From Lentisphaerota bacterium (lineage in GTDB: Bacteria > Verrucomicrobiota > Kiritimatiellia > RFP12 > JAAYLN01): a stretch of 57,269 nucleotides of DNA. This document shows positions 4,484 to 37,483 of the stretch, in pieces. The position numbers and the translations under genes are program-made. The notes below the pieces were generated by a model that ran no database searches, was not told the origin of the DNA, and was given only the letters and a program-made list of their open reading frames with translations. The stretch lies in the NCBI GenBank assembly GCA_012521875.1, contig JAAYLN010000204.1, positions 1 through 57,269 on the forward strand, written 5' to 3'. Position 1 is the stretch's first letter, and every line of letters begins with the position of its first letter.

Positions 4484-4723
4484 CACCTTGACTCCACAAC
4501 ACCTTGTCTCCACAACACCTTGTCCCCACACCTTGTCGGCTACGCTTCGTCTCCACACTCTGTCCCTACGCTTCGTCAAAAGCTAAAGAGTAAGCGGGTG
4601 GAGTAAGCGTACCGATTAAGAGTGAGATTAAGAGAGGGTTTAAGTGGAGCTCTGCACCTACTCACCTTGTCTCCACACTTAGTAGCTATACACTTAGTCC
4701 CCGCACTTAGTCGAAAGCTAAAG
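4484..4723 (+). repeat. TTAAG/CTTTGTC composite element, copy T1 (array - TTAAG module - variant array)
   Basis: CTTGTC/CTTCGTC units every 12-14 nt at 4484-4583. TTAAG module at 4585-4647. Second array with CTTAGTC variant units at 4660-4716. Confidence 0.85.
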
Positions 4724-4815: not shown

Positions 4816-4874
4816 CCGGTACTGCCGTGCCTGCCGGTACTGCCGGTACTGCCGGTACTGCCGGTGGCTGCCGG
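4816..4874 (+). repeat. Tandem 9-mer array (CCGGTACTG)n
   Basis: Six to seven 9-bp units, with variants CCGTGCCTG and CCGGTGGCTG. The same array occurs at 7646-7700 and 33332-33378. Confidence 0.9.
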
Positions 4875-5234: not shown

Positions 5235-6305
5235 TCACCTGGCTTCCTGGCGGTTCAAACCCCTTCCCACCGTCCCCGCCAGCAGCCCGCAGGCGGCGCC
5301 GATATCGGCACCGCCGCTGTAGCGGCGCGCCACGGGTGCCCGCACCCGGCGGCGCAGGGAGTCGCGAAAGGCATTGCGCTCCGCCTCGTCCGGCGGCAGG
5401 AAGACCCCGTCGGGATCATTTACGTCTATCAGGTCTATACGCACGGGCAGGTCGCCGATCCAGTCGGCCAATTGCCGCGCATCCTCGTCGCGGGTGTTGA
5501 AACCGGCAATCATGACCCAGGCGAGCGTGACACGCACGCCAAGGGCGGCGCAGTAGCCGGCAAGGGCATCGCGCAGTTCATCCAGCGGATAGGTCGCCGC
5601 CCCGGGCATGATGGAGCGGCGCCGCCCGGGGTCGGCCGAGGTCAGCGAGACCACGAGGCGGTAGGGCTGCCGCTCGGCGCTGAAGCGCCGGATGGCCGGC
5701 ACAATGCCCGCCGTCGAGAAGCTGATGGCACGGGCGGCGATGGCGAGCCCCGAGGGCTCCGACATGATCTGCGCCGCAGTCAGCGCGGCCTCGTAGTTCA
5801 GAAAGGGCTCGCCCATGCCCATGAAGACCACGCCGCGCACCGGACTCGACGAGGCCTGCGCGACACGGATAACCTGGTCGACGATCTACCAGGTTGCCAG
5901 ATCGCGCTGCCAGCCAAGACGACCCGTGCGGCAGAAGGCACAGCCCAGACTGCAACCGGCCTGGCTGCTGACGCAGACGACGGTACGTTCCAGGGGAGTA
6001 CCGTGATAGAGCGGGATGCCGACACTCTCGAAAACCTCGGGCCCGTCACCTCGCAGCAGCAGACGCCGGAAGCCATCACGCGGCGAGACCGTCTGGCCCA
6101 GGCAGGTCAGTTCGGGGATGCGGGAGACGGACGCCACGCGTTCCAGCAGGGCGGCGGAGAGATCGGAACGGTCGAAGGGCAGAGTGCCGCGCCGCAGCAC
6201 GGAAGCCTGGATGCGCCGCGCCATCGAGGGAGTGACGCCCAGCGGTGCCAGCGCCTGGTATAGCGCGCCGGAAGGCAGTTGCTTGAGGTTGATGGTATCG
6301 CTCAT
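5235..6305 (-). pseudogene. rlmN: RlmN/Cfr-family radical-SAM rRNA/tRNA methyltransferase interrupted by an in-frame TAG
   Basis: GCSLGCAFCRTG (CxxxCxxC) ... RDLATW-TAG-IVDQV ... FMGMGEPFLN ... both halves in one frame. The stop at 5886-5888 lies where the family has a conserved Glu (GAG). Confidence 0.8.
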
Positions 6306-6366
6306 GGGAAGCTCAAATGCGGGCTGGCTCCTGGACTAAGGCAGCTCTGCCGCTTGCCCTCCCGCC

Positions 6367-6595
6367 TTCGACAAGGTGTAGGGACAAAGTGTGGGGACGA
6401 AGCGTATCCGACAAAGCGTGGGGACAAAGCGTGGGGACAAGGTGTAAGTGCGAAGCACCCACTCTAAACCCTTTCTTAAACTCACTCTTAATCGGCACAC
6501 TTACTCCACCCGCTTAATCCTTCACGTTCGACAATGATGGGACAAATGGGACGAATGAGACGAAGGGGGACAGAAGGGAGTGGAGACAAGGTGTA
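6367..6595 (-). repeat. TTAAG/CTTTGTC composite element, copy T2 (reverse), plus a degenerate GGGAC(A/G)A array
   Basis: GACAAAG/GACGAAG units at 6367-6445. GTGCGAAGCAC hairpin. Reverse TTAAG module at 6455-6520. 10-nt-period GGGACAAATG/GGACGAATGA units at 6531-6595. Confidence 0.85.
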
Positions 6596-6603
6596 TCTCT
6601 GAC

Positions 6604-6657
6604 CCATTCCAACTGCCACTGCCTACTGCCACTGCCGCCGCCCTGCAGGGCAGCGGC
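6604..6657 (+). repeat. (ACTGCC)n hexamer/heptamer array ending in a GC hairpin
   Basis: CCATTCCAACTGCCACTGCCTACTGCCACTGCC, then an imperfect 11-bp palindrome centred on TGCA. Same module at 7778-7812, 20588-20651 and 33452-33485. Confidence 0.85.
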
Positions 6658-6660
6658 AAT

Positions 6661-7273: not shown

Positions 7274-7396
7274 GGTCGCTCTCCGTATCTCTGCTCCGCC
7301 TCCACCGGCCAATCACTAAATACCCGGTGAATGGAGTTCATCCATAGTGTAGCATGTCCCATGCCCAATCTCAACCCGCCGAATACCCCTTCAGGG

Positions 7397-7599
7397 CTTT
7401 TGTCAACTTTGTCGCGAGCTTTGTCGGTAACTTTGTCGCCTTCGTCGAACGCGAAAGAGTAAGCGGGTGGCTTAAGCGTGCCGATTAAGAGTGAGTTTAA
7501 GAAAGGGTTTGGAGTGTGCGCTTCGCACTTACACCTTGTCTCCACGCTTTGTCGGCTACGCTTCGTCTCGACACTTTGTCCCTACGCTTTGTCGAAAGC
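7397..7599 (+). repeat. TTAAG/CTTTGTC composite element, copy T3 (short-period CTTTGTC array + TTAAG module + hairpin + array)
   Basis: CTTTGTC units at 7397-7450. TTAAG module at 7455-7515. GTGCGCTTCGCAC hairpin. 13-nt-period CTT(T/C)GTC units to 7599. Confidence 0.9.
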
Positions 7600-7645
7600 G
7601 GAAGAGGAGCTGATGCGTGGATTTTCGCCTCGTCCTCGCCTGCCC

Positions 7646-7812
7646 CCGGTACTGCCGGTACTGCCGGTACTGCCGTGCCTGCCGGTACTGCCGGTGGCTG
7701 GCGCCACATACCCACCGCCATGCCGCATTAGAGCCCCGACATCCCATCACGCGGCGGGGACGCCGCGTCTACCAGCCGCCACTGCCTACTGCCACTGCCT
7801 ACTGCCACTGCC
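7646..7812 (+). repeat. Composite: (CCGGTACTG)n array, GCGGCG-GGGA-CGCCGC hairpin, (ACTGCC)n array
   Basis: 9-mers at 7646-7700. Hairpin about 7750-7767. ACTGCC units at 7778-7812 directly abut the stop of the giant ORF. The same module order occurs at 33332-33485. Confidence 0.85.
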
Positions 7813-10800
7813 CTACCGCCGCCGCCCGCGGCGGGCGGAGCCGAGCGCCAGGCGCAGCACTATCCCCGCGCCCGCAAACACCAGCAGCAGCGGCCAGTAG
7901 CCCAGCAGCCGCATCCATGCCGGACGCCGCTGCGCCTCGAAGACCACCCGCAGCGTACCGCCGCCAGTGTTGAGCAGGGCGCGGCTCAGGCAGATCTCGC
8001 GGCCATGCTCGGGCATGGCGATGCGGATCGCCGTCGCCGCCGAGGCCGCCTGCACCTGCTGCTCGACCATCTTGTCGGCCACGCGCTCGAGGTTGTCGCG
8101 GTCGGCGGCATCAAGCTGTTCCTCGACCTGCCGCACGTAGCGCTCGTCGAAGTTGCCGTTGTTCCAGCCGACCTGCGCCTGCGGCGCGCCCTCGTCGTAG
8201 ATGTTCTTCTCGGCGCGCAGCGCCTGGCGGCGGTTGACCAGTCCCATCTTGACCTGCTGGCGCACCACGTTGCGGAACTGGACGCGGGCGTCCTCGTTGA
8301 GCGCCTGCTCGCCCTGCGAGAGGTTGACCGCCTGCTGCAGCGCGTGGCGCGCATCGAGCTGTCGGCCGGCCTTGAGCAGGGTATCGAGCGACTGCAGGTT
8401 GCCGCGGGCCGCCGTCAGGCTGGCCGCCTGCGCCTGCTGTACCGCCGTCTCGTAGGCCGATTTGCCGAAGGAGCGCAGCATGTCGCTGTCCACAAGATCG
8501 AGGTCGCCGCCGCGCAGCCGCCAGCGGTACTCCGCCGGCACGAAGAGGCGCCACTGGATATCGCGCAGCGGCAGGTCGGGCAGACGCAGCGCCTGCAGCT
8601 CGCGGCATCCGTCCAGCCCCGCCTCCGGCAGGGCATCGGCATAGACCAGCGTGACGTGCGCCGGCTCCTCGCGCGCGACACCCTCGAGCGCGATGCTGAG
8701 CGTCTCGCCGCCGGCTCCCTTCTCGCGCGCCACAGGCGCCTCGCCGCCGTTGACCAGCGCCGACCAGAGCCGGTTGGACGGGCCCGGCAGGATCACGCGC
8801 AGATGGCGCAGGCTGCCCGGCTGCAGCGTGATCGTCGCCTGCGTCAGCAGCCGCCCGCTGCCGGAGAGCACGGTCACCAGGCGCACCTGCCTGACCTGTG
8901 CCGGCAGTACCGCCGCCGCGGCATGGCGCACCACCGAAAGCTCCAAACGGTAGTCGGGACGCAGCACGCGGTAGCAGCGCAGGGCGCCGGAGAGGTCGCC
9001 GGCACCGAAGCTGTCCGGCAACGCGCGGGCATCCTCGGGCTTCAACCCTGCCGGCTCGCCGCGCGGCTCCACCTGCACGCGGCCGCCGCCGGTAATCACC
9101 AGAAAGCCCGACTGGCGCGCCGTATCCAGCGGCTCGAACGGGCGGATGACCACCCCGCCGCCGGCCGGATCGTAGGGCTCCTGGTACTGACAGACCAGGC
9201 TGAAGCTGTCCTCGACCTTGCCGTGCAGCTCGATCTCCCAGATGCGCCCAGTGCCGTTCGAGACGGCGGCCGGCACATCGTCCAGCGGCCGCACGCGGGC
9301 GATGCCGCGGCCGCTCACCGTCACCGGCGCCTCGGCGACGGGGACGCGCACGCGGAAGACCTTGACCCCGGCATTCTCGATCCGGTAGCGCGCATGGATG
9401 CGGTGCAGCAGCATCCCCTCGGCCAGATCGACGCAGTGCAGCACCTCGGGCTTGAGCACCGGCGCCAGCACCTCGGTTTGCAGCCCGATCTGCCAGCCCG
9501 GCCGGAGCAGGTCGAAATGCAGCGCTCCGGCGGGGGCGCGCGTCTCGTCGCCGGGCCGGCGCGCCACGGCACCCTCGATCTGCCCGGTCACCAGCTTGAC
9601 GCCGCGCTCGGCCGCGACGGAGATCCGTCCCGAATGGCGCAGCGCCCCCCGCACCTGCACCCTCGGCACAGTGATCTGCGGCGGCACCCCGCGCTGCTGT
9701 TGCGATAGCACGAGGTTGAGCGAGGTCGTGTCCTGTACGCGGCGCGTCAGGAACACCTCCACCCCCTGCTGCCCGCCGCGCCGCGAGTCGTCCCAGTGGC
9801 TCACGTCGCGCCCGGTCAGCGACTCGATCTCGTAGCCCTCGGGCAGATCGAGATGCAGGGCGAAGAGTCCCGCCTTGGCCACGCTCACCTCCAGCGTGCC
9901 GCTCAGGATCGTGCGCTCGTCGCCGATGCTGAAGAGGCTGGCCTCGCTGACGCGGATTTCCGGCTGCACCTCCTCGGCGTGCAGGGCGATCCGCACGGCG
10001 GCGGGGTCGTCGTAGCGGAAGGCGCGGCGCAGCGTGGTGACGGACGACGCGCGCTCGGCCGCGAAGGCCGCCAGGCTGAAGTCGTCGGTATCTATGGGCG
10101 ACACTCCCTGCACATCGCCGATCCGCGCCAGGATGTCCTCGGGCGCCGCGAGGGCGATGCGTCCGCGCTGGCGCCCGACGCCGATGGCCGCGGGCACGCC
10201 GAGCGTGCCGTCATACGGCAGACCGCCGCAGGGCGACTGGAGTATCACGGTCAGCGTCAGTGTGCCGCTCGCCGGACGCGACAGTGTCATCCCCAGGCTC
10301 CGGTCGGCGGGATCGAAGCGCCAGGTGGCCAGCAACGGCCCCGCCACCGCGGTCACGGTCATGCCGGCGGGCGCGGTCAACGCGAACTCGCGCGTCTCGC
10401 CCTGCACGATCGTGAAGCTTACGAGCGACTGCATCTCGATGACCCCGGGGCGCAGGCGCGCGAGGCTGGCCACATCGGCATAGACCACGGCGGTCTCCAT
10501 CCGCGTATCGCGCGCGCGCGGTTTCCAGGCTATCTCAACCCAGTCGGTGGCCGTCAGGGTCGCCTCCACGCGTGTCGCGCCGTCGGCGCTCTCCAGATCG
10601 AGGCTCGCGGCAGAAGGAATCTCCACCTCCATGTCGGTGGTGGGAATCGTCAGCGCGAGGCGGTTGATCAGGTTCGACGGCCAGGGCAGCAGCAGCCTCC
10701 GTCCGCCGTCGCGCTCCCAGACCTGCTCGCGGGTCGTGATTTCAAGGCGGTGCTCGCCGGCCTTGAGGATGTCGAGCTGCACCCCGCTCCTGTGCGATAC

Positions 10801-13800
10801 CAGCCGCAGGCGCGCGGCATCGGCACGGAAGCCGGCCACGACGCTGCCGGGCGGCAGCAGCAGCCGCCTGCCGGGCGCATCGGCACGGAAGACCAGCGTC
10901 CAGCGCACCTCCGCCACCGGCTCGGCCTCCGGCGTGGCCGGTGGCGCCTCGATTTCCACCTCCAGCCGGTCGGCGGCCAGCGCGGGCGGCAGCGCAACGG
11001 CCGCGGGGAGCGCGGGCCGGACTTGCGGCCCGTCCGGCGCGACCGCTGCCGGTGCCTCGGTACGGGGAGCCGCCTCCGTCTCCGCCTTGAGCGTACCGAA
11101 CCCCGCCAGCAGCAGCGACGCCAGCGCGGCAAGCAGGATGAGGAAGAGCGGCGAAATCGAGCCTTCGGTTGAGGTGTCGCCGGGCGCGGCGTCGTCTGCG
11201 GGGGCGGCGTCCGGTTCCGGTTCGGGCACGAGGGGGGGCGGCGGTACGCGGGATGTCTTGCCCTTGCGCTCCCGCCGTTCACGTGGCGACCGGTTATTTA
11301 GGCGGGCGATACCGCGCGCAATGGCCGCGATCAGGGCTACCGCCGTGCCGACGGTACCGGCTATGACCACACCAATGAGCCCGGGTTGCGTCTGGGCCGC
11401 CGCCAGCGCCAGCAGGGTCAGCGCCAGCGCAAGCCAGAAGCGGCGGCGCAGCACGAGACCGATCAGCAGGGCCGCCAGCCCCGCCGCGCCCGCGACCACC
11501 ATCCGCCGCGGCGAGCCGCCGGCCATCCAGCTTGGCAGCAGTTCGACCGTCACGCGGAGACTCTCCTCGTCGGCGAGGTTGGCGGTACGGTAGAAGCTGA
11601 CGGTACGCGCGCGGCGAGCGCAGGGCGAGGCCCACGGCCAGCGTCCGGCCGTTCCGGCCTCCGGCGTCAGATTGCCGCCCGCGGCACCGATGGCGCGGTT
11701 GTCGTCGGCCGTCACCTCCCAGCGGGTGAAGGTGGCGGGGGTGTCGCTCAGTTGCGGCGCCGTGAGCCCGACGCGCAGCGGACGCTGCCGCACCGCCGGG
11801 GCGGGCTGCGCATAGACAATCTCGATCGGCACGGCCTGGTTGGGATCACGCAGCCGCGCCACCGGAATCAGCAGGCGCTCGCCGTCCTGCTGGGCGGGCA
11901 GGTCGCGCGCGTTGGCCTCCAGTCCCTGGCGCACGCTCCAGAGCTTGGCGCCGGCGGGCAGGCGCGCCTCGAGGTACTGGCGCGAGGCGTTCTTGACGTG
12001 GCAGGTGGCGCGTGTGACCGACTCGCCGTCGCGCCCGATGCGCGAGGAGAGCGCGAAGTAGTCAACAACCTGATCAATCGGCCGCTGGGTCTCGAGGGTC
12101 GTGACCCGCAGCGTGGCGGCATGCGGACGGCGCGTGTACTTGTAGACGGCCAGCAGGGGGGCGGTGACGGTGGCGGCGTAGCCGGCCGGCAGCTCGTCGC
12201 GCGGGATGCGGATCAGGCCGGGCGGCAGGGGAGCGGTCTCCTCGAGGCGCAGGCCGGCACCGGAGGCCACGGCCATGAAGCCCATCTCGCTGGCGGTACC
12301 GACCGCCTCGATCCCCCCGATCCGCAGCTCCGCGCCGTCGTAGCCGAGCGGCTGGTCGTAGGTGATCAGCAGGGTGGTGTGGCCCATGGTGCGGCTGGCA
12401 AGCTGCACGCGGCAGAGGTCGTTGCTGCGCGACCAGTTGTCGATCCCCGCGCCGACGATCTCCAGGCTCGCGCCCGCGTCCGGAACGCGGAAGGCGAGCG
12501 TCTGCACCGGCGCGCCGCTGATGTGGCAGTTGACCGCCGCCGAGACATAGACCACACCCGCGCCGAGCGAGAGCAGATGGAAAATCTCGGTATGGATGGC
12601 CGATTGCGCCCATTCGAGCCCCAGATCGAGCTTCCAGCCCGGCTCGCGGAAGCGGTAGGCGAGCTGCGCCCCCTCGGCGCGGAAGGGGGTCGAGCCGGTA
12701 TGCACATCGCGCAGGTTCTCGGCGGCGCGCGGCACGAGGCGGATACCGCGCTCGGCCGCCGCCACGATGCAGCCGCGCTGCGTGCGCGCCCCGGGCAGCG
12801 ACACCGAGGGTACAGTGAAGGCGTCGCGCGCCAGCCCCAGCGGCAGCTCCATGCGCAGGTTCAGCAGCGTCTGGCCCTCGACCGGCTGACGGAACGGAAC
12901 GAGGATCTCGCGCCGGCCACCCTCCGCCCGGACATCCACATCGCTCTCGATAACCGGCTTGCCGGTCACGCCGATCAGCGTCCAGCGCGGATCGGCATCC
13001 GCCACGAGCTTCACCTCGCGCACCGGCGCGTCGCGCACGTCGAGCCGGATGGCGGCGTCGAGCGCCAGCCGTCCCTCGGCAACGTTGACCAGCAGGTCGA
13101 TCTCGCCGCTCAGCGCGGGGACAACGTGATCCGCGCCCAGCGTCAGCGCGTAGGGCAGCGCGGCGTACTGGTAGGTGAAGACGCTGCGGGTGGGTAGCGT
13201 GCGCGCATAGCCATCGCGCAGCGGTGCCGGTTGCGCGAAGGCAGCCTGGTCGATCTGCGTGATGCCGCTCGCCGCCGCAACCTGCAGCTTGACGGCGCTG
13301 TCCGTCCCGAGCAGCAACTGCCCGCCGGCGCGGATCACGCCCTGCGGCGCGAGCACCGGCAGCCCGAGCGTGCAGGGAAAGGCCGGCAGGGCACGGTCGT
13401 ACTCGACCTGCAGGCGGTACTCCCCGCGCTGCGGACGCCCCAGCGTGATGCGCAGGCGCGGTGCGGCGGATTCGGTACGGTCGATCCGCCAGTCCTGGAT
13501 GTCGGCACCGGTAACCCGCAGGATATTGACGTCCGGCAGGGTGAGGCTCAGCTCGCTCATCTGACCCTGCGCGATGCTGTAGGCGTAGATCGAGTCGAAC
13601 CGCAGCATGCCGGGACTGGCCGTGACAATCGTGTTGATGTCGCACGTGGCGACCAGTTCGGAGGCCACGCGGCGGATTTCCGGCTTCCAGAAGACCTCGA
13701 AGAGGGGATTTGTGTCGAGGTGTACCGTTACGGTATCGCGCCCGTCCGCGTCCGGCTGCCGCTGCAGACCGCGTCCGCCGGGGAAGCGGATCTCGAGACC

Positions 13801-14205
13801 AGGGCGGTCGGCCGTGACGGCGACGGAGCGTACCGGCAGCACGGGCACGCGGAACTGCGCCTGGCGCCAGTCGCCGTCGGCCACGGTACGCACGGCGAAG
13901 GCGAGGCGCACGCGGCCCTCGCCCGCGCGCCAGCCGCCGGTGCGCACGATGCGGAAGGCATCCCCGTCACGGCGCAGCTCGGTATGCCGCGGCAACCTGG
14001 CCTCGGTCAGGGCGACCTCGCCACGCAGCACCTCGAGACTCTCGCCCCGCGCCAGATCGGCATAACCGATCTCCAGCTCGAAGCGGATATTCTCGCCATC
14101 AATCCTGCCTTTCAGGTCAAAACTCCGCGGCACTACCGCCGCTAACAACGCAACGTGCGCAAAAAGCAGGAACAGCAGACTTATATGCGTTCTACATGTT
14201 TTCAT
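7813..14205 (-). CDS. Giant (2130 aa) membrane protein: two paralogous beta-rich modules of about 900 aa, a central TM cluster, and a C-terminal coiled coil plus TM anchor
   Basis: Uninterrupted ORF. N-terminal signal MKTCRTHISLLFLLFAHVALLAAV. GGAG Shine-Dalgarno 7-11 nt upstream. Hydrophobic cluster at aa 902-966 and 1017-1037. C-terminal WMRLLGYWPLLLVFAGAGIVL. No family name assignable without a search. Confidence 0.85.
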   Translation of the reverse strand: MKTCRTHISLLFLLFAHVALLAAVVPRSFDLKGRIDGENIRFELEIGYADLARGESLEVLRGEVALTEARLPRHTELRRDGDAFRIVRTGGWRAGEGRVRLAFAVRTVADGDWRQAQFRVPVLPVRSVAVTADRPGLEIRFPGGRGLQRQPDADGRDTVTVHLDTNPLFEVFWKPEIRRVASELVATCDINTIVTASPGMLRFDSIYAYSIAQGQMSELSLTLPDVNILRVTGADIQDWRIDRTESAAPRLRITLGRPQRGEYRLQVEYDRALPAFPCTLGLPVLAPQGVIRAGGQLLLGTDSAVKLQVAAASGITQIDQAAFAQPAPLRDGYARTLPTRSVFTYQYAALPYALTLGADHVVPALSGEIDLLVNVAEGRLALDAAIRLDVRDAPVREVKLVADADPRWTLIGVTGKPVIESDVDVRAEGGRREILVPFRQPVEGQTLLNLRMELPLGLARDAFTVPSVSLPGARTQRGCIVAAAERGIRLVPRAAENLRDVHTGSTPFRAEGAQLAYRFREPGWKLDLGLEWAQSAIHTEIFHLLSLGAGVVYVSAAVNCHISGAPVQTLAFRVPDAGASLEIVGAGIDNWSRSNDLCRVQLASRTMGHTTLLITYDQPLGYDGAELRIGGIEAVGTASEMGFMAVASGAGLRLEETAPLPPGLIRIPRDELPAGYAATVTAPLLAVYKYTRRPHAATLRVTTLETQRPIDQVVDYFALSSRIGRDGESVTRATCHVKNASRQYLEARLPAGAKLWSVRQGLEANARDLPAQQDGERLLIPVARLRDPNQAVPIEIVYAQPAPAVRQRPLRVGLTAPQLSDTPATFTRWEVTADDNRAIGAAGGNLTPEAGTAGRWPWASPCARRARTVSFYRTANLADEESLRVTVELLPSWMAGGSPRRMVVAGAAGLAALLIGLVLRRRFWLALALTLLALAAAQTQPGLIGVVIAGTVGTAVALIAAIARGIARLNNRSPRERRERKGKTSRVPPPPLVPEPEPDAAPADDAAPGDTSTEGSISPLFLILLAALASLLLAGFGTLKAETEAAPRTEAPAAVAPDGPQVRPALPAAVALPPALAADRLEVEIEAPPATPEAEPVAEVRWTLVFRADAPGRRLLLPPGSVVAGFRADAARLRLVSHRSGVQLDILKAGEHRLEITTREQVWERDGGRRLLLPWPSNLINRLALTIPTTDMEVEIPSAASLDLESADGATRVEATLTATDWVEIAWKPRARDTRMETAVVYADVASLARLRPGVIEMQSLVSFTIVQGETREFALTAPAGMTVTAVAGPLLATWRFDPADRSLGMTLSRPASGTLTLTVILQSPCGGLPYDGTLGVPAAIGVGRQRGRIALAAPEDILARIGDVQGVSPIDTDDFSLAAFAAERASSVTTLRRAFRYDDPAAVRIALHAEEVQPEIRVSEASLFSIGDERTILSGTLEVSVAKAGLFALHLDLPEGYEIESLTGRDVSHWDDSRRGGQQGVEVFLTRRVQDTTSLNLVLSQQQRGVPPQITVPRVQVRGALRHSGRISVAAERGVKLVTGQIEGAVARRPGDETRAPAGALHFDLLRPGWQIGLQTEVLAPVLKPEVLHCVDLAEGMLLHRIHARYRIENAGVKVFRVRVPVAEAPVTVSGRGIARVRPLDDVPAAVSNGTGRIWEIELHGKVEDSFSLVCQYQEPYDPAGGGVVIRPFEPLDTARQSGFLVITGGGRVQVEPRGEPAGLKPEDARALPDSFGAGDLSGALRCYRVLRPDYRLELSVVRHAAAAVLPAQVRQVRLVTVLSGSGRLLTQATITLQPGSLRHLRVILPGPSNRLWSALVNGGEAPVAREKGAGGETLSIALEGVAREEPAHVTLVYADALPEAGLDGCRELQALRLPDLPLRDIQWRLFVPAEYRWRLRGGDLDLVDSDMLRSFGKSAYETAVQQAQAASLTAARGNLQSLDTLLKAGRQLDARHALQQAVNLSQGEQALNEDARVQFRNVVRQQVKMGLVNRRQALRAEKNIYDEGAPQAQVGWNNGNFDERYVRQVEEQLDAADRDNLERVADKMVEQQVQAASAATAIRIAMPEHGREICLSRALLNTGGGTLRVVFEAQRRPAWMRLLGYWPLLLVFAGAGIVLRLALGSARRGRRR

Positions 14206-18833: not shown

Positions 18834-18978
18834 CTTAAGCCACCCGCCCCATCTTTCGCTTTCGACAAAGCGTAGGGACAAAGTGTGGAGACGAAGCGTA
18901 GCCGACAAAGCGTGGAGACAAGGTGCATGGACAAAGTGTGAGCGCGAAGCACCCACTTAAACCCTCTCTTAAACTCAC
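18834..18978 (-). repeat. TTAAG/CTTTGTC composite element, copy T4 (reverse, TTAAG module split and partly deleted)
   Basis: CTTAAGCCACCCGC fragment. GACAAAG/GACGAAG units at 18861-18938. GCGCGAAGCAC hairpin. CCACTTAAACCCTCTCTTAAACTCAC. Confidence 0.85.
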
Positions 18979-19033
18979 ATCATGCGGTTGGCGGCTCGCC
19001 GGTCACGCCGCGTAGCGGCATGACAGGGACGGC

Positions 19034-19244
19034 TCGCCCTACCCTTCGGTTTGCTGTACCGTGAGCTTGGCCTGGCGCGGCGACCGGGGGCTGACGGTAC
19101 GGATGGGGACTGGGCGAACGGAGAGGCCGGAACGCTGGAGCCCGCCGTCCCCGGCGGTACCGTTCGCTATTCATGCGCCGCATCAGTACACCGCGGAGAC
19201 CGCGGGCTCCATAGCGCATCTGAAGTGAACGGGATGCCGGAACG
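19034..19244 (+). repeat. Element B, short form
   Basis: Co-linear with 1293-1492 by eye, with the same hairpins. Confidence 0.8.
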
Positions 19245-20046: not shown

Positions 20047-20388
20047 CCCTTGGCGTTCGTGGCACCTTGCCTGCTTCCTCATCTGCGCGGGCCAGGTCCC
20101 GCGGTAGAAAGCGCGTCCGGGGCCGCGCACTCAAACCGCTTGCGCACGTAGTGCGCCGCGCGGGGTGATCGAATAAGCCGTATAGCTGAAATACCGGGCG
20201 TCTGGCTGATAGGGGGCCGCGTGCGGACGGAGCTCAAGCGAAAGCCGCAGGGTAGGGCTGCAAGCCCACAACTGCAAGGCTCCACACTCCATCACTGCGG
20301 CTACCCCTGCCATTTTCGCGTTAATTGGCGTCCATTCGCGGTTACATCTCTTGGCGTTCTTGGCGTCTTGGCGGTTCAAATCGCTGCG

Positions 20389-20437
20389 CTGTACCGTGAG
20401 CTTGTGCCGGGGCGGCGGGCGGGGTGGTTCGGTACAG
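20389..20437 (+). repeat. Isolated SL1 hairpin module of Element B
   Basis: CTGTACCG-33 nt-CGGTACAG. The same module is reversed at 37787-37845 and 39640-39689, and lies inside the long Element B copies. Confidence 0.75.
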
Positions 20438-20532
20438 GTGGGAGAAAACCGTTTGCGACACAACCCAGTTGTATCGCAGAAGAGGGTAAAAGAGCGTGGA
20501 AAGCCGCGCCTTCGCGTGAGCTAATCTGTTGC

Positions 20533-20651
20533 TTTCGACGAAGGCGACAAAGTTTCCGACAAAGCTCGCGACAAAGTGGGTTTTCGGCCCATTCCAACTG
20601 CCTACTGCAACTGCCTACTGCAACTGCCGCTGCCCCCGCAGGGGCAGCGGC
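20533..20651. repeat. Short-period GACAAAG array, then an (ACTGC[CA])n array ending in a perfect 11-bp hairpin
   Basis: TTTCGACGAAGGCGACAAAGTTTCCGACAAAGCTCGCGACAAAG. CCATTCCAACTGCCTACTGCAACTGCC.... GCCGCTGCCCC-cgca-GGGGCAGCGGC at 20626-20651. Confidence 0.85.
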
Positions 20652-28459: not shown

Positions 28460-30676
28460 TTAGGGTAGCATAACCCCGGCGCATTGGCAAACATTAGACT
28501 TCCAGCGCAGCAACCGTACACTGCCCGCGGCCATGGGCGCGAGCGGTTCAACGCTCTCCCGTCCCGGCTCGGCGGCCGATTCCAGCGTGTAGCCCGGCAC
28601 CTCCAGCGTGAACGGTGCCACTTCATGGGTTGGATTCCAGATTGCCACGCCGAACCGGTCGCCGGCGGCAAACCCCTTGGCCACGAGATCCTTGCCGGCC
28701 AGGGTGAAGCCCTCGCTGTCCGTAAAACGGCCGTGCCAGAAAAACGCCGCGTTTGCACGCTGGAAGTCAATCGCCGCCTTCAGGTAGCGCGTGGCCTCGT
28801 CGGGCGGCGTGGACTGCATCATCACCACATCCGGCTTGCCGACCACATGCGTGTAGTCGTCCATTTCCGGCACGCGGCCGTGCAGCAGGTAGGCCACATC
28901 CGGCCCGTAGCGCGACTCGAGCTCGTAGCGCATCCCGTACACGCAGGTGTAGTTCACCATGTCGCGGTCCATCATCGGCGTCGGAATGCGTACCGTGCTT
29001 ATCACCTCCGGAAAGGTGGTGCGGAAGAGCTCGGGGAAGGTATCCGCCACCCGGTCGGCGCGCAGGCGCGCCAGCATTTCCGCTGCGCACACGTAGAAGG
29101 TGCCCACCGTGCAGCCATGGAACATCGCCACCGCATCCAGCGCACAGTCGTACAGCCCCTCGGTCATCACAATAAACTCGGGGTTGATGCGGCGCATGTG
29201 GTCGGCGATGCGCTTCAGGAAGACCGGACGCTCCACCTCATGCACCATGCAGGGCACCGGGTGGCCGTGGCCTGCGCCATGGCAGGCCATCGGCGGCATC
29301 ATCGCCAACTGGTCGTAGAGGATGCCGTCCGCCCCCAGCGCGCTGGCCTGTTCGGCCAGCGCCAGCATGCGGTCATACCAGGCCTGCGCATGGAGGCATC
29401 CCAGATCAAAGCGGTAAACCGGGATGTTGCCGTACTTGTGGTAGGTATGCTGGTAGGTGGTGCCGTCGCGCTGCGTGATGGCGATGTCCCTGCCTACCGT
29501 GCGCCAGAATTCGGTGGCCTCGCGCTCCTGAAGCTGGCCGTTGGCGTAGATGATCGTGCGCTTGCCCCGCCGCCGGGCCTCCTGCAAGCCCCTTTTCAGC
29601 GCCTCCGCGCCGCCCATCGCGGGACAGGGGTGATAGTCGGGATAGAGGTGATCATGACCGCCGTGCGCCCAGCCGAACAGCCCGATCATATCCAGCCCGC
29701 GGGCATCGGCCACGTCGCACAGCTTGTCCAGCGCGGTGTAGAGCCACATGATCTCGCCATTCTGCTGCTTCAGGATCGCGAGCAGCCAGCCCGATATCCC
29801 GCGCACCCACGCCGGCCCCTCGCGCAGCCTGCCTACCGTATTGAACCAGGCACGGTAGAGGCGCGCCGCCACATGCCTGGTGCCCGCATACGGCCGGAGC
29901 ACAACCGGCGCCAGTTCCACGCTTTCACCGCTGCGGCAGAAGAAGTCGTGGCGCACCGCCATGCCGAAGCGTTTCGTGGCGGGATCGTAGCGCAGACTCA
30001 GCCGCTTGGCGCGGTGCAGCGGGTCATGGCTGCCGACATAGAGGCCGCCCTTGCGGCCCGCGAGCGCGAACCACTGCATGGTGCCGTGTGCGCAGGGATA
30101 GGCCACCCCCGTTTCATAGCCGTCACCCAGCCGCTGCCAGCCCCCCTGCTCCTCGCCGGGCGCCGGGACGCGGTTGATGCGCTTGCCGAACCCCTCCGGC
30201 AGCAGTGCCGGGGAGTCGGCCAGATCCGCCCCGATCCCGTTCAGCACCGGCCCCGTGAAGCCGGTCAGCAGCCAGCCGCGCGCCTCATGCGTGACCGCCC
30301 CCGTCACCGTGAAGCCATCGCCCGAGGCATGGAACTCCAGCGTCAGCCCGATTCTGAAGACCCGTCCGCCGTCCGTCAGCCGCTCATAGACCAGCCGCGC
30401 GCCACCATCCGGCAGCGCCTCCCGCCGTGCCGCGTCCTGTCTGAGGCTGGTGATCACCACCGCCTCCCCCTGCGCCGCCGGCACTGTGTCCGGCTCCAGC
30501 GTCAGGCTCCAGAACGGCTCACCCGTCGCCCGGCTTGCCGGACACCCCGCCACCGACGGCGTCAGGCTGAGCCCCTTGGCACCCACCGACAACCTGCCCT
30601 TGCCCGCTGTGATGGTAACGTCGCCGGAGTCGTTCGAGGTGTTTCTATTAGAGGAGTTCATGTGTAAGTCAGTCAT
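28460..30676 (-). CDS. Hypothetical 738-aa protein, possibly carbohydrate-active, at the head of the glycogen gene block
   Basis: Long protein-like ORF. ATG at 30676 is preceded by AGAGG. Segments such as GLFGWAHGGHDHLYPDYHP and IIYANGQLQ resemble TIM-barrel glycosidase-like proteins. No family could be named by eye. Confidence 0.6.
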   Translation of the reverse strand: MTDLHMNSSNRNTSNDSGDVTITAGKGRLSVGAKGLSLTPSVAGCPASRATGEPFWSLTLEPDTVPAAQGEAVVITSLRQDAARREALPDGGARLVYERLTDGGRVFRIGLTLEFHASGDGFTVTGAVTHEARGWLLTGFTGPVLNGIGADLADSPALLPEGFGKRINRVPAPGEEQGGWQRLGDGYETGVAYPCAHGTMQWFALAGRKGGLYVGSHDPLHRAKRLSLRYDPATKRFGMAVRHDFFCRSGESVELAPVVLRPYAGTRHVAARLYRAWFNTVGRLREGPAWVRGISGWLLAILKQQNGEIMWLYTALDKLCDVADARGLDMIGLFGWAHGGHDHLYPDYHPCPAMGGAEALKRGLQEARRRGKRTIIYANGQLQEREATEFWRTVGRDIAITQRDGTTYQHTYHKYGNIPVYRFDLGCLHAQAWYDRMLALAEQASALGADGILYDQLAMMPPMACHGAGHGHPVPCMVHEVERPVFLKRIADHMRRINPEFIVMTEGLYDCALDAVAMFHGCTVGTFYVCAAEMLARLRADRVADTFPELFRTTFPEVISTVRIPTPMMDRDMVNYTCVYGMRYELESRYGPDVAYLLHGRVPEMDDYTHVVGKPDVVMMQSTPPDEATRYLKAAIDFQRANAAFFWHGRFTDSEGFTLAGKDLVAKGFAAGDRFGVAIWNPTHEVAPFTLEVPGYTLESAAEPGRESVEPLAPMAAGSVRLLRWKSNVCQCAGVMLP

Positions 30677-32184: not shown

Positions 32185-32361
32185 TTATTGTAAATAGATT
32201 GCAAAGCCTTGCAGTTGTGGGCTTGCAGTCTGGCCCAGCAGCTTTCTTTCCAGCCCCATCCGCACGCGGCGGGGACGCCGCGTCCGCGATACTTTGTCGA
32301 AAGCAACAGGGAAAACCCACGCGAAGGCACGAAGAATAGGAAACCGCGAATGCACGAAAGC

Positions 32362-32526
32362 GAAAGATTAAGCAGGTGGTTTAAGCGTGCCGATTAAGTG
32401 TTTAAGAGAGGGTTTAAGACCAGTGGGTGCTGCGCTCTAACACTTTGTCTCCGCTCTTTGTCTCCACGCTTTGTCGGGTACGCTTCGTCCCCTCACTTTG
32501 TTCCTACGCTTTGTCGAAAGCTAAGG
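32362..32526 (+). repeat. TTAAG/CTTTGTC composite element, copy T5
   Basis: GAAAGATTAAGCAGGTGGTTTAAGCGTGCCGATTAAGTGTTTAAGAGAGGGTTTAAG, then CTTTGTC units ending GCTTTGTCGAAAGC. Confidence 0.85.
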
Positions 32527-32546
32527 ATGGGGACAGCGTTTCCATC

Positions 32547-33331: not shown

Positions 33332-33485
33332 CCGGTACTGCCGGTACTACCGGTACTACCGGGACTACCGGTACTGCCATGAGCCGCAGCCCCCAGCCCC
33401 CTTTCGCCCCCTTTGTGCACACGGCATGCCGTGCGCCTATTGAGCCCGCGTCCACTGCCACTGCCTACTGCCACTGCCTACTGCT
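33332..33485 (+). repeat. Composite (CCGGTACT[GA])n ... (ACTGCC)n, co-linear with 7646-7812
   Basis: 9-mers at 33332-33378. ACTGCC units at 33452-33485. Confidence 0.85.
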
Positions 33486-33583: not shown

Positions 33584-36500
33584 ATGTCCGCACATCCTCT
33601 CCACACCCTCGCCGCCTCCCGCGTCCTCGTCCTCGACGGTGCCATGGGCACCATGCTGCAGCGCCTCGGCCTGCCGGAGGAGGCCTTCCACGCCCCCGGC
33701 ATCCCCGAAAACATTGCGCAGAAGGGCAACAACGACGTCCTCTGCCTCTCGCGCCCCGACGCCATCGCCGCCATCCACCGCCAGTATCTCGAGGCCGGGG
33801 CCGACCTCGTCTCCACCAACACCTTCAACGCCAATGCCATCTCCCAGCATGAGTACGGTACCGAGGCCCTCGTTTACGACATCAGCAAGGCCGGTGCCGC
33901 CATCGCCCGGCGCGAGGCCGACGCCTTCTCCACGCCGGAGCGCCCGCGCTTCGTCTGCGGCAGCATCGGCCCCACCGGCAAGTCGGCCTCGCTGCCGCCC
34001 GACGCCGACGACCCCGCTCATCGCGACATCCGCTTCCGTGAACTAGCCGAAGCCTACCGCACGCAAATCCGCGGCCTGCTCGATGGCGGTGCCGACGTGC
34101 TGCTCGTCGAGACGGTCTTCGACGCGCTCAACGCCAAGGCCGCGCTCTACGCGGCGGCGGTCGAGTCCGGGACCCGTGGCACGGTGGCACCTGTCATCGT
34201 CTCCGCCTCCCTCGCCAGCGCCGACCGCCTGCTTACCGGCCAGACCGTCGAGGCCTTCTGTACCGCCGTCGCCCACGCCCCCGGCCTGCTGGCCATCGGC
34301 CTCAACTGCGGCTTCGGCGCCGCGCAGCTCGCCCCCGTCCTGCGCCGCCTCAAGGCGGTCGCCCCCTGTCACGTCAGCGCCCACCCCAACGCCGGCCTTC
34401 CCGACGCCTTCGGCAACTACACCCAGACGCCGGCGCAGATGCGCCGCGAGCTCGATCCCCTGCTGCGCGACGGCGTTCTCGCCATCGTCGGCGGCTGCTG
34501 CGGCACCACCCCCGACCACATCCGCGCCATCGCCGGGGCCGTGCGCGCCATCAACACCCCGCCGCACGCCCCGCAGCCGCCGTCCGCCGCCGCCTTCTCC
34601 GGCCTCGAACGCCTCGCAATCCCGTCCGGCCCGCACGCGCTCGTCGAGGTGGGCGAGCGCACCAACGTGGCGGGCTCGCGGCGCTTCCTGCGCCTCATCA
34701 AGGAGGAGGATCACGCGCAGGCCGTCGAGGTCGCCCGCGCCCAGGTCGTCGCCGGGGCCGCGATCATCGATGTCAACATGGACGACCCCCTGCTCGACGC
34801 CCCCGCCGCCATGCGCGGCTTCCTCAACCGCTGCGCCGCCGAGCCGACGCTCGCCGATGTCCCCGTGATGGTAGATTCCTCGAACTGGGAGACGCTCGTC
34901 GCCGGCCTCGAATGCCTGCAAGGCCGCGGCATCGTCAACTCCATCAGCCTCAAGGATGGCGAGGAAACCTTCCTCGGCCATGCCCGCGAAATCCACCGCC
35001 TCGGCGCCTGCCCGCTCGTGATGTGCTTCGACGAGAAGGGCCAGGCCGACACCCTCGAACGGCGTTGCGAGATCGCCGTGCGCAGCTACCGCCTGCTCGT
35101 CGCGGCCGGCATCCCGCCCGCGGAGATCATCATAGACGCCAACGTCTTTGCCATCGCCACGGGCATCGCCGGCCACGACCGCCTCGCCCTGGACTTCATC
35201 GAGGCTGTGCGCTGGATCAAGGCCAACCTGCCCGGCGCCCTCACCAGCGGCGGCATAAGCAACGTCTCGTTCGCCTTCCGCGGCAACAACACCCTGCGCG
35301 AATGGATCCACTCCGTCTTCCTGCACCACGCCGTCGCGGCCGGCCTCGACATGGCCATCGTCAACCCCGCCGCGATGGTCGCCTACGACGAGATTCCCGC
35401 CGAATCCCGCCGGGTCGTCGAGGACGCCGTCCTCTGCCGCACCCCCGACGCCGCCGCGCGCCTTGCCGAGCTGGCCGTCGCCACCATGGCGACCGCCCCC
35501 GCCGCCGCGCCCGCCGCCAAGGGCGGCACCGAGAAGAGCGCGCCGCCGCAGGAGCGCCTCAAGAGCGCCGTGGCCACCGGCAGCGCCGCCGGACTCGCTG
35601 CCGCCGTCACCGAGGCTATCGAGGAGTTGCGCCAGGCCGGGCGCGGCGACGCCGATGCCGCGCTGGCGCTGCTCGAGGGGCCGCTGATGGACGGGCTGGC
35701 GGTGGTCGGCGAGGCCTTCGGCGCCGGACGCCTCTTCCTGCCGCAGGTGCTCAAGAGTGCGCAGGTCATGAAGCAGGCCTCGGCGCTGCTCGAGCCCTTC
35801 ATGGCCGCAGGCTCCTCCGGGGCCGGCACTGCCGCGGCACGCAAGCCTAAGATGCTCATCGCCACCGTCAAGGGCGACGTACACGACATCGGCAAGAACA
35901 TCGTCGCCACCGTGATGCGCTGCAACGGCTGGGATGTGGCCGACCTCGGCGTGATGGTCGAGCGCGAGCGCATCCTGGCGCACGCCCGCAAGCACAATGT
36001 GGATGTCGTCGGCCTCTCCGGCCTCATCACCCCCTCGCTCGACGAGATGGTGCGCGTGGCGCAGGTCTTCGAGGAGGCGGGGCTCGACATTCCGCTGGTC
36101 GTCGGCGGCGCGGCGGTTTCGGAACTGCACACTGCGGTCAAGATCGCGCCGGCCTATTCCGGCATCGTCGCCTGCGGCGGCGACGCCTCCTCGATGCCCG
36201 GCCTCTGCGCCTCGCTGCTCCCCGGCCCGGGGCGGCGCGTCGCCACCGCAGCACATGCGGCACGCCACGAGGAGCTGCGCCAACAGTACGACCGGTCGCG
36301 CCAGCCGCGCATCTCCCTCGGGACGGCACGGCAGCGCGCCGCCGCGGCGGGGCGTCCCGCCCCATGCCTCACCGTGCCGCGCGATCCCGCGGTGCATGTC
36401 TTCCGCGACATCCCGCACGCCGAACTCGGGCCGCTGATCCCCTGGGCGATGCTGCTGGGCAGCTTCGGCTTCAGGAGCGCGGCGGAAAAACGCACGCCCG

Positions 36501-37084
36501 AGGCTCAGGAACTGCTGCGCGACGCCAAGGCCCTCCTCGCCGGCCTGCCGCTGGCGGACGGCGCGACGCTCGCCGTCCATGGCGTCTCCGGCATCTTTCC
36601 CGCCTGGGCGGAGGACGAGACCATTTTCGCCAAGGTAGATGGTACCGAGGTGGCCTTGCCGGTGGCGCGCGATCTGTCGGAAACGGGAGCGGGCTACAGC
36701 CTGGCCGACCACCTGCCGCCGAAGGACGCGCCTGCGCACGGCTGGATCGGGATGCAGGCGGTCAATGCCGGCTCGGGTCTGGATGCGGTGGTCGAGGCGC
36801 TGGGAGAGTCGCGCGGCGGCTACCTTGCGATTCTCGCGGCGGTACTGGCCAACTGCCTGGCCGAGGCCGGCGCCGAGTGGCTGCACCGCGAGACCGTCGG
36901 GAGCTACTGGGGCGGCGAAGGGCTGGGCAAGCGCCCCGCGCCCGGCTACCCCGCCTGCCCCGACCATGCGCTCAAGCGCGCGATCTTCGATGCCCTCGGC
37001 GCCGAGAGCGCCATCAACGCCCGCCTTACCAGTTCCCACATGATCGTCCCCGAAGCCGCCACCTGCTGCTTCATCATCCGCTGA
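33584..37084 (+). CDS. metH: Cobalamin-dependent methionine synthase
   Basis: Homocysteine-binding, pterin-binding, B12-binding (GDVHDIGKNIV, DxHxxG) and AdoMet-activation domains, in order. ATG at 33584. Confidence 0.95.
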   Translation: MSAHPLHTLAASRVLVLDGAMGTMLQRLGLPEEAFHAPGIPENIAQKGNNDVLCLSRPDAIAAIHRQYLEAGADLVSTNTFNANAISQHEYGTEALVYDISKAGAAIARREADAFSTPERPRFVCGSIGPTGKSASLPPDADDPAHRDIRFRELAEAYRTQIRGLLDGGADVLLVETVFDALNAKAALYAAAVESGTRGTVAPVIVSASLASADRLLTGQTVEAFCTAVAHAPGLLAIGLNCGFGAAQLAPVLRRLKAVAPCHVSAHPNAGLPDAFGNYTQTPAQMRRELDPLLRDGVLAIVGGCCGTTPDHIRAIAGAVRAINTPPHAPQPPSAAAFSGLERLAIPSGPHALVEVGERTNVAGSRRFLRLIKEEDHAQAVEVARAQVVAGAAIIDVNMDDPLLDAPAAMRGFLNRCAAEPTLADVPVMVDSSNWETLVAGLECLQGRGIVNSISLKDGEETFLGHAREIHRLGACPLVMCFDEKGQADTLERRCEIAVRSYRLLVAAGIPPAEIIIDANVFAIATGIAGHDRLALDFIEAVRWIKANLPGALTSGGISNVSFAFRGNNTLREWIHSVFLHHAVAAGLDMAIVNPAAMVAYDEIPAESRRVVEDAVLCRTPDAAARLAELAVATMATAPAAAPAAKGGTEKSAPPQERLKSAVATGSAAGLAAAVTEAIEELRQAGRGDADAALALLEGPLMDGLAVVGEAFGAGRLFLPQVLKSAQVMKQASALLEPFMAAGSSGAGTAAARKPKMLIATVKGDVHDIGKNIVATVMRCNGWDVADLGVMVERERILAHARKHNVDVVGLSGLITPSLDEMVRVAQVFEEAGLDIPLVVGGAAVSELHTAVKIAPAYSGIVACGGDASSMPGLCASLLPGPGRRVATAAHAARHEELRQQYDRSRQPRISLGTARQRAAAAGRPAPCLTVPRDPAVHVFRDIPHAELGPLIPWAMLLGSFGFRSAAEKRTPEAQELLRDAKALLAGLPLADGATLAVHGVSGIFPAWAEDETIFAKVDGTEVALPVARDLSETGAGYSLADHLPPKDAPAHGWIGMQAVNAGSGLDAVVEALGESRGGYLAILAAVLANCLAEAGAEWLHRETVGSYWGGEGLGKRPAPGYPACPDHALKRAIFDALGAESAINARLTSSHMIVPEAATCCFIIR

Positions 37085-37139
37085 TGGTCGCCGGTCGCCA
37101 GTTGGAACAGGCCAGAGACGCCACTTTGTCCTCGCTGCA

Positions 37140-37275
37140 TTAATTTGACAGGATTTCCTGCTTCGCAGGCGCATATTAACATGATTAACATGATTTTCAG
37201 GATTTTTTTGGCCGCTACGCGGCAGGATTTAGCTACGGATTGCGCGGATTGGTGTAGGGTGTCTCAGACTAGTCG
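37140..37275. repeat. Element C, inverted copy of 6661-6812
   Basis: GACAGGATTTCCTG...ATTTTCAGGATTTTTTTGGCCGCTACGCGGCAGGATTTAGCTACGGATTGCGCGGATTGG is the reverse complement, with indels, of the copy near 6690-6775. Confidence 0.75.
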
Positions 37276-37286
37276 GGTCAGAGCCC

Positions 37287-37461: not shown

Positions 37462-37483
37462 GAAAGCGAAAGAGCAAGCGAAT

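Follow-up and report, generated by a model that had tools for sequence, protein, structure and literature searches.

A foldback repeat of phased TTAAG and CTTTGTC units interspersed between the genes of an uncultured Kiritimatiellae lineage

What kind of element is the composite of TTAAG and CTTTGTC units that recurs between the genes of contig JAAYLN010000204.1 (assembly GCA_012521875.1), a stretch of 57,269 nt which as a whole is called here the window? A sequence-only reading of this DNA had listed ten copies of a three-part unit, and had proposed that it is either an array of sites for one or two DNA- or RNA-binding proteins or an expressed structured or sponge RNA. Our analysis leads us to consider it probable, if by no means certain, that the element is a lineage-specific foldback or mosaic interspersed repeat, selfish or neutral, of the same kind as BOX, bacterial interspersed mosaic elements (BIMEs) and MITEs (miniature inverted-repeat transposable elements), and not a regulatory RNA.

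The organisation of the element can be followed on the copy at 7397-7606, which we take as a reference:

7386-7397 (+): short hairpin ccccttcagggc, read from the sequence and equal to the 3' hairpin type of the Acido-Lenti-1 module
7405-7458 (+): module M1, an array of 12-nt period, CTTTGTCgcgag / CTTTGTCggtaa / CTTTGTCgc / CTTCGTC, followed by the linker gaacgcgaaaga (Tandem Repeats Finder, TRF, gives period 12 at 7405-7439)
7459-7515 (+): left arm, four (G/T)TAAG units of 12-13 nt with the consensus GWTTAAGnGtGnG (sequence, unit logos)
7516-7528 (+): tip hairpin GTGCG-CTT-CGCAC, the centre of dyad symmetry (sequence, folding, alignment)
7534-7599 (+): right arm, made up of five 13-14-nt CYTYGTC units (unit yyACRCYTTGTC) and terminating in GCTTTGTCGAAAGC (sequence, TRF, logos)

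The three-part layout described before, namely four to five TTAAG units of 12-13 nt, a hairpin, and five to nine CTT(T/C)GTC units of 13-14 nt ending in GCTTTGTCGAAAGC, is thereby confirmed. A hairpin of the ccccttcagggc type often lies 5' of the 12-nt array, and the junction gcccYttcagggc-N9-CTTTGTC recurs in many metagenome copies. Logos of the right-arm unit, yyACRCYTTGTC, built from 139 CYTNGTC arrays, give a period of 13 nt in 409 of 565 intervals (14 in 82, 12 in 38 and 15 in 31), and those of the left-arm unit, GWTTAAGnGtGnG, built from 79 TTAAG arrays, a period of 12 nt in 116 intervals and 13 in 117; the 7-10-nt core of the unit is invariant and tightly spaced, and the spacers are variable. 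Compared with dinucleotide-preserving shuffles, the window contains 73 occurrences of CTTYGTC where 12.1 are expected, 16 of the phased KTAAG-N8-KTAAG where 0.07 are expected, and nine of GCTTTGTCGAAAGC with at most one mismatch where 0.03 are expected; the phasing of the motifs is far beyond chance. The element family accounts for about 17% of the window's non-coding DNA and has a GC content of 51%, compared with 67% in genes, its right arm being rich in C and poor in G (C 38%, G 16%).

The two arms are related to each other. If the right unit is reverse-complemented, the result (GACAARGyGTG) agrees with the left unit at all conserved positions except for a fixed CA->TT change, the arms align unit by unit, including flavour-matched GCGTGCCGA opposite TCGGCTACGC, and Watson-Crick matches between them number 2636 as compared with 2188 in shuffled arms. 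The TTAAG array is an inverted, diverged copy of the CTTTGTC array, and the core is an imperfect foldback of about 150 nt with a GTGC-TTC-GCAC tip. Folding by RNAfold joins the TTAAG and CYTTGTC arrays through pairing across the tip (-57.9 kcal/mol for 7440-7606; a folding z-score of -3.5 for 40240-40450), and among 76 unique copies the minimum-free-energy structure is a tip-bridging hairpin in 68, with a mean z of -2.2 and a median of 42 out of 62 left-arm bases paired across the tip; complementarity of the arms is imperfect, roughly 60-65%. Since the arms, by unit logos, alignments and these folds, are themselves the inverted repeats, the earlier statement that terminal inverted repeats are absent was wrong, and the statement that the element does not look like a MITE does not hold either: the inverted arms give it a resemblance to MITE, BOX and foldback elements, and the inverted end repeats and highly base-paired fold by which a MITE is recognised are both present. 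The fixed difference between the arms puts a T.G pair and a T.T mismatch into each stem unit. Long perfect palindromes are unstable in bacteria, and such mismatches would keep a palindrome of about 150 nt imperfect and hence stable; alternatively, they could serve as a recognition feature, as stem mismatches may do for proteins that recognise IS200/IS605 and REP (repetitive extragenic palindromic) hairpins.

With a profile hidden Markov model (HMM) made from the aligned cores we detect in the window nine copies that contain the tip, five on the + strand and four on the - strand, plus array-only matches. Besides the reference copy, the full and partial copies of the window are:

4484-4723 (+): 1.5x copy, in which a right-arm-type array is followed by a left arm, a degenerate tip and a right arm whose units include CTTAGTC variants (HMM, sequence)
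6350-6600 (-): full copy, 45-60 nt upstream of rlmN and in the same direction as rlmN (HMM, sequence)
18834-18978 (-): copy with a truncated left arm of two TTAAG units (HMM, sequence)
20522-20577 (-): M1-type 12-nt array alone, inside the repeat island that starts just past the pnp terminator (sequence; new to the list)
32344-32532 (+): full copy, with an M1 remnant at 32291-32304 (HMM, sequence)
37284-37472 (+): full copy that includes M1 and lies about 200 nt downstream of metH; a second assembly, L116, has it unchanged (HMM, sequence)
40245-40445 (+): full copy with a 40-bp internal duplication and nine right-arm units (TRF, HMM, folding)
49868-50025 (-): copy that has M1 and a shortened right arm and lies about 110 nt upstream of fabD (HMM, sequence)
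50800-51022 (-): full copy with CTTAGTC variant units (HMM, sequence)
55396-55535 (no strand): arrays-only variant between divergent genes, CTTTGTC x5 converging on GACAAAG x3 around a centre of about 27 nt (sequence)
51178-51195 and 32291-32304: short partial arrays (sequence; new to the list)
38050-38067: solo left-arm fragment (sequence; new to the list)

All ten loci listed by the sequence-only reading bear the element at essentially the same coordinates, as judged by reading of the sequence and by the HMM scan, and the details it had pointed out are in place: the occurrence in both orientations, the 1.5x arrangement at 4484-4723, the CTTAGTC variants (4693/4706 and 50904/50917) and the 40-bp duplication (TRF period 40, 2.4 copies, 92% identity, 40344-40440). 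The duplicated copy belongs to a 600-bp composite (40245-40824), 84% identical to 51020-50423.

The same preference for the space between genes is seen in the window and outside it. As many as 104 of 108 distinct copies (96%) are intergenic, in accordance with the non-coding placement claimed before. Their orientation is indifferent to the genes, being the same as that of the nearest upstream gene in 34 cases and opposite in 28, and 27 to 29 with respect to the downstream gene; all four gene configurations occur, and the window copies are found in tandem, convergent and divergent intergenic regions. Among these copies there is no common neighbouring gene and no adjacent gene of a cognate binding protein, and the distances from genes are varied.

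The window is chromosomal, carrying pnp, rpsO, metH, glycogen genes, a fab cluster, an extracytoplasmic function (ECF) sigma/anti-sigma pair, toxin-antitoxin pairs and an RHS protein. Its host is an uncultured member of Kiritimatiellae from digester and wastewater metagenomes: the exact polynucleotide phosphorylase (PNPase) is present on contigs from at least 49 metagenome collection blocks, and its best named relatives, at about 79% identity, are Kiritimatiellae metagenome-assembled genomes (MAGs). The host species is apparently missing from the GTDB representative set, since the genome scan gave no multi-hit contig. In the metagenomes, the junction of the tip with the first unit retrieved at least 116 loci, with about 110 distinct copies, all of one grammar, among the matches listed, and the profile HMM found 214 matches over 683 kb of metagenome loci. 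Numerous matches fall at the ends of contigs, which is what repeats that break assemblies should show. As every copy stems from a short-read metagenome assembly, collapse may have changed unit counts here and there; one locus (L055) has NN inside the element.

Closely related lineages lack this family. In 35 kb from relatives with 85-90% identical PNPase, where about 5-6 full copies would be expected at the density of the window, we found no array and no HMM match. A canonical intrinsic terminator downstream of pnp is kept in all the lineages compared, and in the relatives the next gene comes directly past it, whereas in this lineage a 2-kb repeat island starts there. As to empty sites in the relatives, synteny is lost beyond rpsO-pnp, and only the absence of the whole island is visible. 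One relative with 89% PNPase identity (L262) has different micro-arrays around rpsO-pnp, (TTAAGCG)x4 followed by TTGGGCG units, and an 11-mer, (GGGATCGCCAGC)x4, which suggests that short intergenic arrays are a clade-wide habit with a rapid turnover of motifs. That the element belongs to no described family, as had been supposed, is supported by our searches: the core has no Rfam match at the gathering threshold or even at E<=1, plasmid and phage collections gave no match, and literature searches on the motif strings and on Kiritimatiellae repeats returned nothing relevant. Two junction matches on viral contigs were rejected as chance matches inside coding sequence, and more than 120 viral matches to the 12-nt-phased pattern were set aside as well, which are mostly CTTTGT hexamer microsatellites and other simple tandem or coding repeats, unrelated to the element.

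Whole-unit gain and loss, which had been proposed from differences between copies, is seen directly between strains: two metagenome loci, L034 and L114, have flanks 99.7% identical and differ by exactly three GACAAGGtgtggg units. A census of units gives arrays of 3-13 units, and the numbers in left and right arms are uncorrelated (r = -0.01). Each arm is a small variable number tandem repeat (VNTR) that gains and loses whole 12-14-nt units independently of the other arm, and the arrays thus offer VNTR loci for strain typing. At another site, compared between L033 and L076, other modules are present or absent. A variant left-arm unit, (G/T)TAAGaccag..., occurs in L016, L040, L046, L066, L071 and L081 and at 32405-32415 of the window; in L081 (about 6560-6660) an insert of about 75 nt that ends in ...accag stands at the place of the variant unit, which hints at a second small element inserting into, or excising from, the TTAAG array.

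The reading that we prefer, an interspersed repeat of selfish or neutral character, joins the observed architecture, copy number, lineage restriction, intergenic confinement, orientation neutrality and unit-number instability. The family would have expanded recently in this lineage, either via transposition by an enzyme acting in trans or via recombination or gene conversion between islands, and would be tolerated nowhere but between genes. A protein, be it a mobilising enzyme or a host DNA-binding protein, would recognise the invariant 7-10-nt core at fixed phase, and a putative protein recognition site is most likely what the strict core marks. If neighbouring genes are affected, this would be a side effect of hairpins in transcripts. 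We infer both how the family spread and that a protein partner exists.

A number of observations weigh against this reading. It is from copy number and lineage restriction only that we infer mobility. Copy-specific target-site duplications were not found, own flanks matching at 3.9 of 12 positions as compared with 4.1 for permuted partners, a weak negative, as mosaic neighbours blur the boundaries of copies; the comparisons of strains yielded no pair of empty and filled sites for the core, only changes in unit number and in other modules. Neither the window's ORFs (open reading frames) include a transposase, nor is there a recurrent transposase or RAYT-like (REP-associated tyrosine transposase) family among 570 ORFs in 740 kb of element-bearing loci. 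In addition, the core motif recurs at the same phase, with different spacers, in distant MAGs of the Planctomycetes-Verrucomicrobia-Chlamydiae (PVC) group, which hints at a conserved host partner and a possible function. Finally, folding favours the + strand in 60 of 76 copies, with a mean difference of 5.2 kcal/mol, and the common polymorphisms at paired tip positions are one-sided and all wobble-compatible on the + strand (U-A<->U.G, G-C<->G.U), so that some role at the level of RNA is conceivable.

On clustering of all ORFs of the element-bearing loci, the only recurrent families were ABC ATPases and metabolic enzymes, and the unknown ORFs adjoining window copies are either the two halves of rlmN or without matches. 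Two candidate traces of mobility were rejected. The GAAAGCGAAAGA on both sides of the core is not a target-site duplication, being a family consensus and not copy-specific; a synteny breakpoint at the metH island was suggested by L116, a contig that looks chimeric. L116 matches 33721-39318 of the window, is identical from 34480 onward and diverges within the 5' end of metH, and beyond the point of divergence it carries genes for an ArsR-type regulator and for a methyltransferase. A chimeric join across a conserved gene during assembly is the probable reason, and recombination a possible one.

Among the other explanations, the best survivor is that the arrays serve one or two host DNA-binding proteins as functional platforms, with CTTTGTC(G) as one type of site and GWTTAAG as the second, on which the proteins would polymerise at a register of 12-13 bp for nucleoid organisation, silencing of islands or global regulation, so that copies would be selected sites. 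We regard it as unlikely, with enough in its favour to be kept in mind. The invariant core, the predominance of the 13-nt interval and the variable spacers agree with it, as does the orientation independent of genes, which is expected of sites in double-stranded DNA; the uncorrelated arm lengths mean that the hairpin may not be what is maintained. The distant PVC arrays also speak for it. They came from a scan of the GTDB genome collection with one rigid pattern, CTTYGTC-N6-CTTTGTCGAAAG, which gave 10 matches where about 9 are expected by chance; of these we accepted as real only 5-6 loci, which have additional in-phase units and inverted arrays. At these loci, which belong to Verrucomicrobiota, Kiritimatiellae and an unclassified MAG, 2-5 CTTTGTC(G) units converge on 2-5 GACAAAG units at a 12-13-nt period, between ordinary and unrelated genes; a second CTTTGTC site lies within 8 kb in L006, L008 and L009 (a convergent array in L006, a one-sided one in L008), and some of the arrays adjoin Acido-Lenti-1-like hairpins. 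The architecture is that of the arrays-only form which the window copy at 55396-55535 shares with L016, L066, L086 and L093. The composite-core HMM has no match at the distant loci, which indicates that the bare phased array predates the composite and is more widespread; the distant arrays are the simpler ones. Against the platform stand the complete absence of arrays from the 35 kb of close relatives and the different arrays of the 89% relative, both unexpected for a conserved host system, the instability of unit number between strains, and a period of 12-13 bp that is out of phase with the DNA helix; moreover, no candidate protein and no consistent neighbouring gene were found.

We may even suggest, with as little confidence, that the phased CTTTGTC(G) array, of 12-13-nt register and frequently convergent and adjoining Acido-Lenti-1-type hairpins, is an ancient protein-recognition platform of PVC bacteria, shared by Kiritimatiellota and Verrucomicrobiota, and that the Kiritimatiellae family is its runaway derivative: either a counterpart in bacteria of the eukaryotic Foldback transposons, mobilised by an enzyme reading arrays of sub-repeats, or the lattice of an undescribed nucleoid or silencing protein. 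If such a PVC-wide partner of the CTTTGTC array exists, the arrays would be a handle for finding it.

More doubtful still is that the element acts as RNA, read in the direction from TTAAG to CTTTGTC, whether as a structured or sponge small RNA or in cis on messenger RNA, by stabilising it, marking a site of processing or loading Rho on a C-rich array of 13-nt phase. The better folding of the + strand and the wobble-compatible variation of the tip are what one would expect of it, and so is the composition of the right arm, for the site size of Rho per subunit matches the 13-nt phase; besides, an adjacent module is an Rfam small-RNA family. However, random orientation with respect to genes, alike in tandem, convergent and divergent regions, argues against any strand-specific role in messenger RNA, such as terminator, leader or Rho-loading site, and for this reason a Rho rut site or terminator was rejected as a general role. 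No compensatory double change was seen at any of the 10 consensus pairs in 34 in-register copies (RNAalifold), the power of this test being low for copies so young and similar. The excess of G.U-type over A.C mismatches, 648:313 in real arms, was tried as a proof of the RNA strand and rejected, as composition-matched shuffled arms reproduce it (714:392); it is an effect of composition and not independent evidence for RNA. The uncorrelated arm lengths likewise do not favour this explanation, and we found neither a sigma-70-like promoter nor an intrinsic terminator associated with the element, although the lineage uses canonical terminators. The sponge or structured RNA proposed at the outset is therefore disfavoured by the random orientation, the lack of compensatory covariation and the lack of promoter and terminator signals, and we return to the interspersed repeat as the better account.

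That the copies are an artefact of sequencing or assembly, chimeric or collapsed by short-read assemblers, can be dismissed almost entirely despite the many copies at contig ends, the NN in L055, the poly-G junk in which L261 ends and the chimeric look of L116 outside the element, because 22 kb of the window (10760-32883) with three copies are 99.88-99.93% identical in four independent JGI/ENA wastewater and digester assemblies that differ in project and assembler, L116 has the 37284-37472 copy unchanged, and more than 100 distinct copies follow one grammar.

The closest analogue in architecture and behaviour is BOX, followed by the mosaics of BIMEs and REPINs (hairpin-forming REP doublets) and by MITEs. 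BOX of Streptococcus pneumoniae (boxA-boxBn-boxC) is an intergenic composite with stem-loops, found in both orientations, whose tandem modules vary by strain (PMC3049150); it clusters with other repeat families, and the mechanism of its mobility is unproven (PMC3049150). The likeness lies in variable tandem modules within a composite that forms stem-loops, with a length that differs between strains, probably by slippage or unequal crossover, and it is one of kind and not of homology. BOX has end modules of about 50 nt with 45-nt boxB between them, whereas our element has arms made of arrays of 12-14-nt units with a strict 7-10-nt core, the variable units themselves form the stem, and the host is a PVC bacterium of 65% GC. 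Judging by host phylum and GC content, homology to boxA, boxB or boxC is very unlikely, and the families are likened by description.

With REP, BIME and REPIN sequences the element shares high copy number, extragenic location, imperfect palindromes and mosaics with short motifs. Conserved stem mismatches could, in our element as in proteobacterial REP elements, be features recognised by protein, as in the REP-RAYT pairing. However, REP sequences are single palindromes of 20-40 nt and not phased arrays of sub-repeats, our element has no GTAG-type guide motif, and in the 740 kb of its loci there is no RAYT or Y1 transposase, which sets it outside the REP/REPIN-RAYT systems. MITEs are defined as small, non-coding, AT-rich relative to the host, with inverted repeats, highly paired, multi-copy and intergenic (PMC3049150). 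The element resembles them, and Correia and NIME (neisserial intergenic mosaic) elements, in being small and non-coding, with 51% versus 67% GC, inverted arms and a tight fold, in many intergenic copies; it differs in that no target-site duplication was detected, no cognate insertion sequence with matching ends was found among the searched loci, and the inverted repeats span the whole element as tandem sub-repeats instead of being short and terminal. Eukaryotic Foldback (FB) transposons are of kilobase scale, with a transposase in some copies. Their long inverted arms of short tandem sub-repeats, variable and unequal in length, and their heterogeneous copies are reminiscent of our element as an architectural analogy only, given the differences of domain, size and associated transposase. 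Plasmid iterons and centromere arrays of the parC type, which are single loci beside rep or par genes, likewise consist of phased direct repeats of a short core, sometimes as two sets flanking a centre, and the phased core is found here too; unlike them, the element exists in hundreds of dispersed chromosomal copies with no adjacent cognate gene, and the fixed position at an origin or promoter is lacking. The element is not a member of the Acido-Lenti-1, REP/RAYT or iteron systems.

We know of no bacterial family with arms built from phased sub-repeats, and our literature searches found none; likewise, to our knowledge no repeat family has been described from Kiritimatiellota, nor was there one in the literature searched. 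New families of interspersed repeats are not in themselves surprising. This one nevertheless adds a defined repeat family for Kiritimatiellota, with an architecture unusual for bacteria, that is, foldback arms of phased 13-nt sub-repeats with a fixed two-base difference between them. As it breaks short-read assemblies, it matters for the quality of MAGs in digester and wastewater studies.

The cores do not occur alone, as they sit in variable mosaics with other short-period modules that fill enlarged intergenic regions. The partners are the 12-nt CTTTGTC array, Acido-Lenti-1 hairpins and arrays of GTCCTC, CCGGTACTG, ACTGCCACTGCCT, CGCGAAA, CACGGAGG and GAATCGA. In the window they include:

40113-40157 (+): Acido-Lenti-1 (RF01687) two-hairpin module, upstream of the 40245 copy (Rfam)
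50013-50057 (-): Acido-Lenti-1 module lying, on the - strand, immediately upstream of the M1 array that belongs to the 49868-50025 copy (Rfam)
4816-4874, 7646-7695 and 33332-33375: tandem arrays of CCGGTACTG x5-6 adjoining the element
6612-6636, 7778-7812, 20595-20628 and 33454-33484: ACTGCCACTGCCT arrays adjoining the element
1289-1492, 19030-19244, 37484-37579, 40534-40686 and 50560-50703: further interspersed repeats, 80-95% identical between copies, in the same islands
20388-20442, 37784-37847, 39638-39695, 40771-40835 and 50423-50477: further interspersed repeats, again 80-95% identical between copies, in the same islands

The islands thus hold at least two additional interspersed repeat families. 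Metagenome copies add arrays of GTCCTC, CGCGAAA, CACGGAGG, GAATCGA and GGGTATCGAC, and the intergenic DNA of this lineage is a patchwork of micro-arrays.

Acido-Lenti-1 is multi-copy in this host, with five further matches in 148 kb of metagenome loci. It is seen in L025, L027, L034 and L057, often directly upstream of the 12-nt CTTTGTC array. The original Acido-Lenti-1 alignment has 89 representatives, some of them tandem repeats of about 200 nt in Lentisphaera; the flanks of the original representatives that we examined contained no CTTTGTC arrays. The module adjoins copies of the element and is multi-copy both here and in the original genomes, but it is a separate two-hairpin module to which the TTAAG/CTTTGTC core has no match. 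Membership of the element itself in that family was rejected, as only the flanking modules match RF01687. The occurrence of Acido-Lenti-1 as a module of mosaic repeat islands makes one ask if it is a small-RNA gene or part of a repeat element.

Several minor observations concern the genes of the window. The rlmN gene (5235-6305, - strand), which is flanked by convergent copies of the element at 4484-4723 and 6350-6600, has a single in-frame TAG at 5886-5888 (...LATW*IVDQV...), at a position normally occupied by Glu in RlmN, and is either a pseudogene or the product of a sequencing error. A GDSL lipase (46647-47575, - strand) is broken, probably by a frameshift, into an ORF for the N-terminal half at 47096-47575 and one for the C-terminal half at 46647-47099, which overlap by 4 nt. 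One of the four assemblies that are 99.9% identical to the window, L013, lacks about 370 nt in the 5' part of a DUF6259 gene (29010-29383 of the window), a strain-level indel. An ORF of 2130 amino acids at 7813-14205 (- strand) has a strong coding signal, with a GC content at third codon positions of 0.89, and no Pfam match.

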